Shown: positions 2,388 through 3,609, numbered from the stretch's first letter. The stretch is DNA of 64,000 nt from Candidatus Saccharicenans sp. (GCA_035416665.1 DAOLNQ010000010.1:1228-65227); one strand, 5' to 3'. Notes: generated from the letters alone by a model not told the origin. A program made the numbers and translations.

Positions 2388-3609
2388 CGAGGAGGTAAAA
2401 AGAGATGGCTAAGGAAAAGTTTGTAAGGACGAAGCCGCATGTGAACGTAGGGACGATAGGGCACATAGATCACGGTAAGACGACGTTGACATCGGCGATA
2501 ACGAAGGTATTATCGACGAAGGGGATGGCGCAGTACAAGAGTTATGATGAGGTGGCGAAGGCAGATGCGAAGATGTTCAGGCGAGATGCGACGAAGATAT
2601 TGACGGTGGCGTTGTCGCATGTGGAGTATGAGACAGAGAAGAGGCACTATGCGCACATAGATTGTCCAGGGCACGTGGATTACATCAAGAACATGATCAG
2701 TGGGGCAGCGCAGATGGACGGGGCGGTGCTGGTGGTAGCGGCTGATGATGGTCCGATGCCGCAGACGAGGGAGCATATCTTATTAGCGCGGCAGGTGGAT
2801 GTACCGGCGATTGTGGTATTTATCAACAAGGTGGACTTAGTGGATGATCCGGAGATACTGGACTTAGTGGAGTTAGAGGTGAGGGAGCTTCTGAGCAAGT
2901 ATGATTTTCCTGGTGACAAGACGCCGGTGATCAGGGGTAGTGCGACGAAGGCGTTAGCTGATCCAGAGGGAGAAGGCGGGAAGCCGATCTGGGAGTTAGT
3001 GAAGGCGATGGATGAGTTTATACCGGAGCCGGTACGGGAGATAGACAAGCCATTTTTGATGTCGATAGAGGATATATTTTCGATAACAGGACGTGGGACA
3101 GTGGTAACGGGGAGGATAGAGCGCGGGGTGGTGAAGGTAGGGGACGAGGTCGAGATAGTAGGATTTGGGGAGACGAAGAAGACGGTGGTGACAGGGATAG
3201 AGATGTTCCGGAAGATACTGGATCAGGGACAGGCTGGAGACAATGTAGGATGTTTGTTGAGGGGGATAGGTAAGGATGAAGTGGAGAGGGGACAGGTTTT
3301 AGCGAAGCCCGGGACGATCACACCGCACAAGAGATTTAAGGCGCAGATATATGCGTTGACGAAGGATGAAGGTGGTAGGCACACGCCGTTTTTCAATGGT
3401 TATCGTCCGCAGTTTTATTTTCGGACGACTGATGTGACGGGGTCAGTGAAGCTACCGGCTGGAGTAGAGATGGTGATGCCAGGAGACAATGCGGAGGTAG
3501 AGGTGGAACTGATCACGACGGTGGCGATGGAGAAGGGGCTGAGATTTGCTATCAGAGAGGGCGGACGGACGGTTGGCGCTGGTACCGTCACCGAAATCCT
3601 GGAATAGAG
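2388..3609 (+). repeat. 1222-bp direct repeat, copy 1 (tuf plus 17-nt leader)
   Basis: Appears base-for-base identical to 18534..19755. Boundaries were found by hand, and the forward ORF and both antisense ORFs translate identically. Confidence 0.85.
2405..3607 (+). CDS. tuf: elongation factor Tu (copy 1)
   Basis: 400 aa. P-loop [30 protein letters not shown] and [15 protein letters not shown]. Sits in the canonical position after the Thr-Tyr-Gly-Thr tRNA genes. The switch-I segment is atypical (see findings). Confidence 0.95.

Follow-up and report, generated by a model that had tools for sequence, protein, structure and literature searches.

In elongation factor Tu (EF-Tu), the threonine of switch I binds Mg2+ and the gamma-phosphate, and a water molecule bound to the Mg is held in place by Asp50. 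Towards the acceptor end of the aa-tRNA and the ribosome lie the acidic helix and Arg58, and in the complex of EF-Tu with EF-Ts switch I is disordered. The R-G-I-T-I/P-E-E motif of this segment, which contacts Mg2+/GTP, the monovalent cation, aa-tRNA and the ribosome, is treated as universal by textbooks and by surveys of translational GTPases. R-G-I-T-I is also recognized by agents such as Lit-type proteases, whose cleavage site is Gly59-Ile60, and kinases for which the switch-I threonine is the phosphorylation site. Producers of elfamycins have a resistant EF-Tu. For planctomycetes, Jenkins and Fuerst (2001, J Mol Evol 52:405), a paper cited by PMC3444138, reportedly described a "unique 11-amino-acid motif" in EF-Tu. 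The carbonyl of Gly59 and the P-loop Asp hold a monovalent cation (PMC4342817). The same source mentions extra EF-Tu copies of actinomycetes, Tuf3/actEF-Tu2, and lists eIF2-gamma/aIF2-gamma, citing Kuhle & Ficner, among the translational GTPases without the switch-I Gly for monovalent-cation binding (PMC4342817).

The DNA analyzed here, a stretch of 64,000 nucleotides from Candidatus Saccharicenans sp. (in the following the window), contains two tuf genes. Copy 1 (2405-3607, + strand) encodes a 400-aa EF-Tu, P0001, with an alternative switch I, the core of which is located at 2555-2608 (+, codons 51-68). Copy 2 (18551-19753, +) encodes the same protein with the core at 18701-18754 (+, codons 51-68), and the DNA of both copies is 100% identical, including 17 nt upstream. 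Canonical EF-Tu (E. coli TufA/TufB; Thermus 1EFT, 1EXM and 1TTT; TIGR00485) resembles this protein in its three domains, its P-loop and the motif NKVD, and its genes occupy the same positions, tufA after fusA and tufB after a tRNA cluster, with EF-Ts present. Copy 1 lies at the tufB-type site, downstream of a tRNA-Thr(tgt)-Tyr(gta)-Gly(tcc)-Thr(ggt) cluster (1994-2366, +) and upstream of tRNA-Trp. Copy 2 lies at the tufA-type site, directly 3' of fusA (16442-18544, +) and 5' of rpsJ/rplC. The whole order, tRNA-Thr-Tyr-Gly-Thr, tuf, tRNA-Trp, nusG, rplKAJL, rpoBC, rpsG, fusA, tuf and rplC, is the classic context, and both classic tuf sites are filled by the variant. A 164-aa ORF just 5' of the tRNA cluster (1358-1852, +) has no Pfam match at E <= 0.001.

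The assembly from which the window derives has a size of 2.32 Mb in 68 contigs and is 90.9% complete. The initial annotation had proposed to look for a canonical third tuf elsewhere in the genome; none was found in these 68 contigs, and both tuf genes present are of the variant type. EF-Ts is encoded in the same genome. The canonical motif is kept there by LepA (ERERGITI), by one EF-G-like protein and, as had been pointed out before, by the EF-G encoded in the window (700 aa, QEQERGITI).

The protein was assigned to EF-Tu by several tests. P0001 scores 684.1 bits against the NCBIfam EF-Tu equivalog TIGR00485 (cut-off 522.4), matches PF00009, PF03144 and PF03143 (GTP_EFTU, GTP_EFTU_D2 and GTP_EFTU_D3) above their cut-offs, gives phmmer E values down to 2e-197 and is 61-72% identical to solved EF-Tu structures in Foldseek alignments, in agreement with the earlier view that the protein outside the loop is canonical. 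The nucleotide-binding motifs G1 (type GHxDHGKT), G3 (DCPGH) and G4 (NKVD) are intact, and D22, K25, T26, D86, H90, N141, K142 and D144 show no or almost no variation across an alignment of 96 sequences. The G2/switch I motif D-x-x-P-E-E-x-x-R-G-I-T-I is missing from P0001, where only Ala53, Arg59 and Thr67 are left of it; although usual in the family, this motif stands outside the curated TIGR00485 cut-off, which P0001 passes. Apart from the G2 motif, all curated tests assign the gene to EF-Tu, and the annotation as tuf requires no change. The model for selB reaches 174 bits, below its cut-off of 242. A specialized EF-Tu paralogue (SelB, Tuf3-like or EF-Tu-like) was rejected on the grounds that no canonical copy was found in the 90.9%-complete genome and that the divergence is restricted to residues 41-68. 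The protein would carry out ordinary aa-tRNA delivery, with Thr67 binding Mg2+ and the gamma-phosphate.

The switch-I region was the reason for the initial annotation, in which nucleotides 2543-2617 (codons 47-71 of copy 1) had been described as lacking D-x-A-P-E-E-x-x-R-G-I-T-I and as carrying a segment 5 residues longer instead. Both statements hold: the translations of the two base-identical copies agree, and in a MAFFT alignment with canonical EF-Tu, five additional residues, D-A-T-K-I, precede L-T-V. It had also been claimed that only one threonine can be aligned with the Mg-binding position. The segment has in fact two (Thr63 and Thr67), of which Thr67 (2603-2605) falls into the column of the Mg-binding threonine, E. 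coli Thr61. Arg59 stands in the column of E. coli Arg58, and Ala53, Arg59 and Thr67 hardly vary across the two loop types. Whereas canonical EF-Tu has Asp50, P-E-E, Gly59 and an acidic loop, the longer loop of the window has lost all three elements and is basic: Ala takes the column of E. coli Asp50, Ile65 instead of Gly stands two positions ahead of Thr67, and the net charge changes from about -3 (in the canonical copy of G207, a genome of a sister genus) to +1. The Gly two positions before the Mg-binding Thr is lost in eIF2-gamma/aIF2-gamma as well; eIF2-gamma also alters the P-loop Asp, whereas the EF-Tu of the window keeps Asp22. With AKADAK-x-FRRD-x-TKILTV, the loop has the long form of a class whose members exceed the canonical loop by 2-5 residues and share, in front of HVEY, the core [AT]-K ... 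R-[DG]-x-[TS]-K-x-[LVIM]-T-[VI]. In Chloroflexota, Bipolaricaulota and Aminicenantia alike, the positions that separate the loop types are confined to residues 41-68, and no position outside this range changes consistently with loop type in the three groups compared.

Nothing was found in favour of a sequencing, assembly or frameshift artefact, and its probability is negligible. Two identical copies carry the segment, and the other five frames of 2521-2640 contain neither APEE nor RGITI, as had already been argued against a compensated frameshift. Hundreds of independent assemblies show the same peptide with synonymous variation. The remodelling of switch I is therefore real in both copies, and the orthologue check suggested at the outset gave the same picture, with relatives carrying the same loop and many synonymous differences. 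All of the best 120 whole-protein homologues (85-100% identity, Aminicenantes/Saccharicenans MAGs) read AKAD[AV]KMFRRD[AE]TKILTVA, and the residues just before this stretch vary among them. Among 56 non-redundant long-form genes, codon pairs of the 18-codon core differ synonymously in 47.7% and in the amino acid in 6.5%; the 18 flanking codons on either side reach amino-acid differences of 39.5% and 21.1%. As the DNA pattern by which most long-form loci were recruited prescribes eleven of the 18 core codons, the invariance of these eleven is partly circular. The seven unconstrained codons (AKADAK-x) are equally conserved, and whole-protein searches agree. By this pattern of substitution, the variant loop is under strong purifying selection.

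The initial annotation had considered the loop a notable lineage-specific remodelling and had named, as evidence to the contrary, a broad alignment in which the variant is common. The variant is common in such an alignment, and this part of the interpretation is abandoned. With residues 36-80 as query, the identical loop was retrieved from Anaerolineae and Thermoflexales, in EF-Tu proteins of 405-406 aa. A GTDB-wide scan with back-translated FRRDxTKILTV, which covers the long form only, returned at least 120 stretches; among the 120 listed, an EF-Tu ORF carrying the loop is present in 119, and the ORF of the remaining stretch is too truncated to read. Their source labels are Aminicenantes, Thermoanaerobaculia, Holophagales, Anaerolineae, Thermoflexia, Bipolaricaulota/Acetothermia, WOR-3/Hydrothermales and Ca. 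Ozemobacter, and a few of the listed MAGs bear other labels. Ten of ten carriers from other families or phyla have a single tuf match each, of the variant type. That the loop arose within this Aminicenantes lineage would be in line with its invariance throughout the family of the window. However, the same 18 residues in EF-Tu of Anaerolineae, Thermoflexia, Bipolaricaulota, Thermoanaerobaculia, Holophagales, WOR-3 and Ozemobacter, the related forms in Planctomycetota and in proteins labelled Kiritimatiellia, Victivallales and Phycisphaerae, and the canonical loops of other Aminicenantia families make such an origin extremely unlikely. Mis-binned Aminicenantes contigs, which could imitate a wide distribution, are excluded by the distinct protein bodies of the carriers. 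Judged by its residues, the loop of the window is a member of a widespread alternative switch-I class and not a one-off oddity.

Several related forms belong to this class. The form VAKAS[EA]xQGRRDxTKILTI occurs in the Acidobacteriota families f20, f30 and f35 and in Bipolaricaulota, and a region search with it gave at least 8000 matches, some of them labelled Planctomycetota, Phycisphaerae, Kiritimatiellia or Victivallales. The form IAKGGVVRDASKILTV was found in Bipolaricaulota EF-Tu. In Planctomycetota, EF-Tu takes the forms IAKGGTVRDETKTVTI and IAKGGEQRGETKILTI, and most of the sampled proteins read IAKGGTVRDETKTVTI or VAKASESQGRRD.TKILTI; of about 30 sampled, the majority are non-canonical and about eight canonical. 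The Planctomycetota forms found here (GGTVRDETKTV...) would fit the motif reportedly described by Jenkins and Fuerst. The planctomycete type has the core R-D-x-T-K-x-V/L-T-I and the preceding A-K in common with the loop of the window, which is 3 residues longer (ADAKMF vs. GGTV) and sits in an Acidobacteriota-type body. One tuf-like stretch of a planctomycete (G571:C5:863016-864065) is 57% identical to the query and contains 5 in-frame stops (3 TGA, 1 TAG, 1 TAA); an intact canonical tuf is found at a distance of about 15 kb, and the stretch probably represents the decayed remnant of a second copy.

Thermotogota were considered as further carriers and rejected, as the MAGs labelled Thermotogae belong to the GTDB phylum sample of Bipolaricaulota. 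Four records (L011, L031, L045 and L077) are titled Thermotogae, Thermotogaceae or Thermotoga sp., and their GTDB sample is Acetothermia/Bipolaricaulota. Their EF-Tu nests within Bipolaricaulota, and therefore the record labels are probably wrong. In two Chloroflexota genomes (L230, G423:C131; L231, G436:C308), the main EF-Tu has the long variant and is accompanied by a second paralogue which is about 60% identical. The switch I of this second paralogue reads ...AGAENRHGVGI or ...AIAESQHGVGI, without Thr at the Mg-binding position, and HH replaces AH before DCPGH.

For comparison of the loop with the rest of the gene, trees of 120 proteins were calculated with the loop columns removed. The rows may include the canonical Acidobacteriota protein L244 (G024, unpublished), and no claim depends on it. 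On these trees, phylum labels change 9 times (minimum 6) and loop type changes 11-12 times (minimum 2). Bipolaricaulota form one clade (support 96-97), in which canonical proteins are nested inside long-variant ones (support 99), and the "GRRD" forms of Acidobacteriota are nested among canonical Acidobacteriota proteins. Variant and canonical proteins of Chloroflexota group together in a model-dependent manner (99, and 91 under C20; split under LG+G4). Monophyly of the variants, for a constrained group named after a first tree had been seen, was rejected under LG+G4 (cost 238 log-likelihood units, AU p 0.00034) and under LG+C20+F+G4 (cost 213 log-likelihood units, AU p 3.6e-6). The loop-free trees thus reflect the phylum of the host, and the type of loop is in conflict with the phylogeny of the gene body; together with the rejection of a single variant clade this means that the loop behaves as an exchangeable module. 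Within one clade of Bipolaricaulota, the DNA identity of variant and canonical genes amounts to 80-82% outside the loop; inside it, the identity of their proteins is 21%. Recent import of a cassette was tried as an explanation and rejected: between Bipolaricaulota clades the DNA of the loop (about 80%) is no more similar than the conserved flanks. The exchanges there must therefore be old. From these alignments and trees we infer an old segmental exchange, either direct or via gene conversion between co-resident copies.

The structural basis of the loop was approached by prediction. AlphaFold2 with a 96-sequence alignment gives a confident EF-Tu fold in a closed, GTP-like state (pLDDT 86), with a TM score of 0.90 to 1EFT and 1EXM. 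Residues 53-69 stay below a pLDDT of 50, and the canonical control, the copy of G207 in the same alignment, is equally poor at residues 55-64, with its switch I below 50 as well, so that no structural reading of the loop can be taken from these models. None of the PDB chains matches residues 44-72, even at E = 10. On the level of residues, Lys64 or Arg59/60, plus Asp61, are candidates for the roles of Gly59 at the monovalent-cation site and of Asp50; Asp61 and the invariant Lys64 (or Arg59/60) may assume the water-holding and cation functions. The basic loop may also bind RNA more strongly.

A more far-reaching idea is that the loop is a self-contained exchangeable module which has repeatedly displaced the canonical loop across phyla, as it alters the chemistry of EF-Tu. 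We regard this as unlikely, and it could take two forms. The Lys that invariably stands three positions ahead of the Mg-binding Thr might act as a built-in charge and render GTPase activation independent of the cation held by Gly59. Alternatively, the rebuilt basic loop might make EF-Tu insensitive to agents that recognize the R-G-I-T-I loop.

Within Aminicenantia, the class to which the window belongs, the history of the two loop types can be followed. In a sample of 401 genomes of the phylum, the long-form pattern was detected in 11 genomes, from f1 (the family of the window), f5, f21, f22 and f58. EF-Tu of the type DNAPEEKERGITI was found in the Aminicenantia families f3, f4, f6-f9, f11 and f12. 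By their loop sequences, the canonical loop is the norm in Aminicenantia and the variant is limited to two families there. The 61 sampled genomes of f1 show different states. In genus g3 (8/8 genomes) and in g232, a variant copy is accompanied by a second copy, 68-74% identical to the query and, if the two share a contig, separated from the first by about 16 kb; this second copy was confirmed as canonical (DNAPEERERGVTI) in 6 g3 genomes and in the g232 genome. Genus g2 has a single variant copy, also in a one-contig assembly. In g1, the genus of the window, there are two near-identical variant copies, with 4 differences in 1200 nt in G717 and none in the window. The states canonical plus variant, variant plus variant and variant alone thus make the replacement of the loop in an essential gene traceable step by step.

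In G207 of the sister genus, the canonical copy is located 3' of the tRNA-Thr-Tyr-Gly-Thr cluster, and a fusA-like ORF precedes the variant. The canonical copy groups with canonical EF-Tu of the same order (support 99), and the protein of the window groups with variants of Thermoanaerobaculia and Ozemobacter, its gene body being Acidobacteriota-like and apart from canonical Aminicenantia EF-Tu. In the Acidobacteriota family f30, a variant "GRRD" EF-Tu and a canonical EF-Tu are found on different contigs of the same genome (L234/L262 in G037, L236/L260 in G053 and L237/L261 in G019), with 75-76% protein identity in the three genomes. Including G207 (72%), the co-resident types are 72-76% identical. 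Homogenization of these copies was rejected at this low identity, with no blending by gene conversion in the four genomes. From the stable coexistence in f30, a division of labour may be supposed for some lineages.

Read most simply, these data suggest a replacement in three steps, of tentative direction. A whole variant gene, with a body like that of other Acidobacteriota classes, would have come to lie beside the native canonical gene. Both copies would then have remained distinct. Finally, in the genus of the window, gene conversion would have overwritten the canonical copy, which would leave no canonical switch I in this genus; gene conversion is the most likely way in which the variant came to occupy both sites. 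The reverse order, with the variant native to the family and the canonical copy of g3 and g232 imported later, would fit the presence of the variant in every sampled f1 genome with tuf and the restriction of the canonical copy to two genera. We consider it improbable, as in G207 the canonical copy clusters with canonical EF-Tu from other families of its order (support 99) and sits at the conserved tRNA-tuf-tRNA-Trp site, and the variant body groups with other Acidobacteriota classes and Ozemobacter. Acquisition of the variant followed by conversion is therefore retained as part of the explanation which we regard, taken as a whole, as quite probable: a housekeeping EF-Tu of the widespread alternative class, with the family history given here. 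The assignment of both tuf genes as the housekeeping EF-Tu genes of the cell is one part of this joint judgement.

The variant might also be a specialized second EF-Tu, stress-specific or resistant to a toxin or antibiotic, with a canonical tuf in the unassembled ~9% of the genome. The assembly is incomplete, and extra specialized EF-Tu copies likewise give two types in one genome, as observed in the relatives g3, g232 and f30 and, beside a third type, in some Chloroflexota. In contrast, both classic sites in the window are filled by the variant, four other g1 genomes have two variant copies and no canonical one, g2 has one variant copy only, single-contig assembly included, and the ten carriers elsewhere have the variant only. 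Extra specialized copies also diverge over the whole protein, whereas the variant of the window is the only EF-Tu, occupies both housekeeping sites and differs in switch I only. A specialized role is thus very unlikely, and a housekeeping function is preferred.

The class is already annotated as "elongation factor Tu" in public databases, in thousands of genomes, and is little studied; our full-text literature search found no description of the alternative loop, be it functional or structural. As a second, equally conserved loop serves as the only EF-Tu loop in large parts of several phyla, the motif R-G-I-T-I/P-E-E is not obligatory. The variant represents a natural experiment in which GTPase activation and the helix-to-hairpin switch are built in another way. 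New in this study are the family-level series of tuf states and the formal rejection of variant monophyly.

The tuf genes also show a distinct codon usage. Their codons are G-ending and C-poor, with a third-position GC skew of 0.66 versus 0.18 in neighbouring genes in the window, and the same was observed in L131, L135 and L146-L148. A codon dialect tied to loop type was considered and rejected: the bias is common to canonical and variant tuf across Aminicenantia, whereas variant tuf of other phyla lacks it. The bias is a trait of the class Aminicenantia, independent of the type of switch I.
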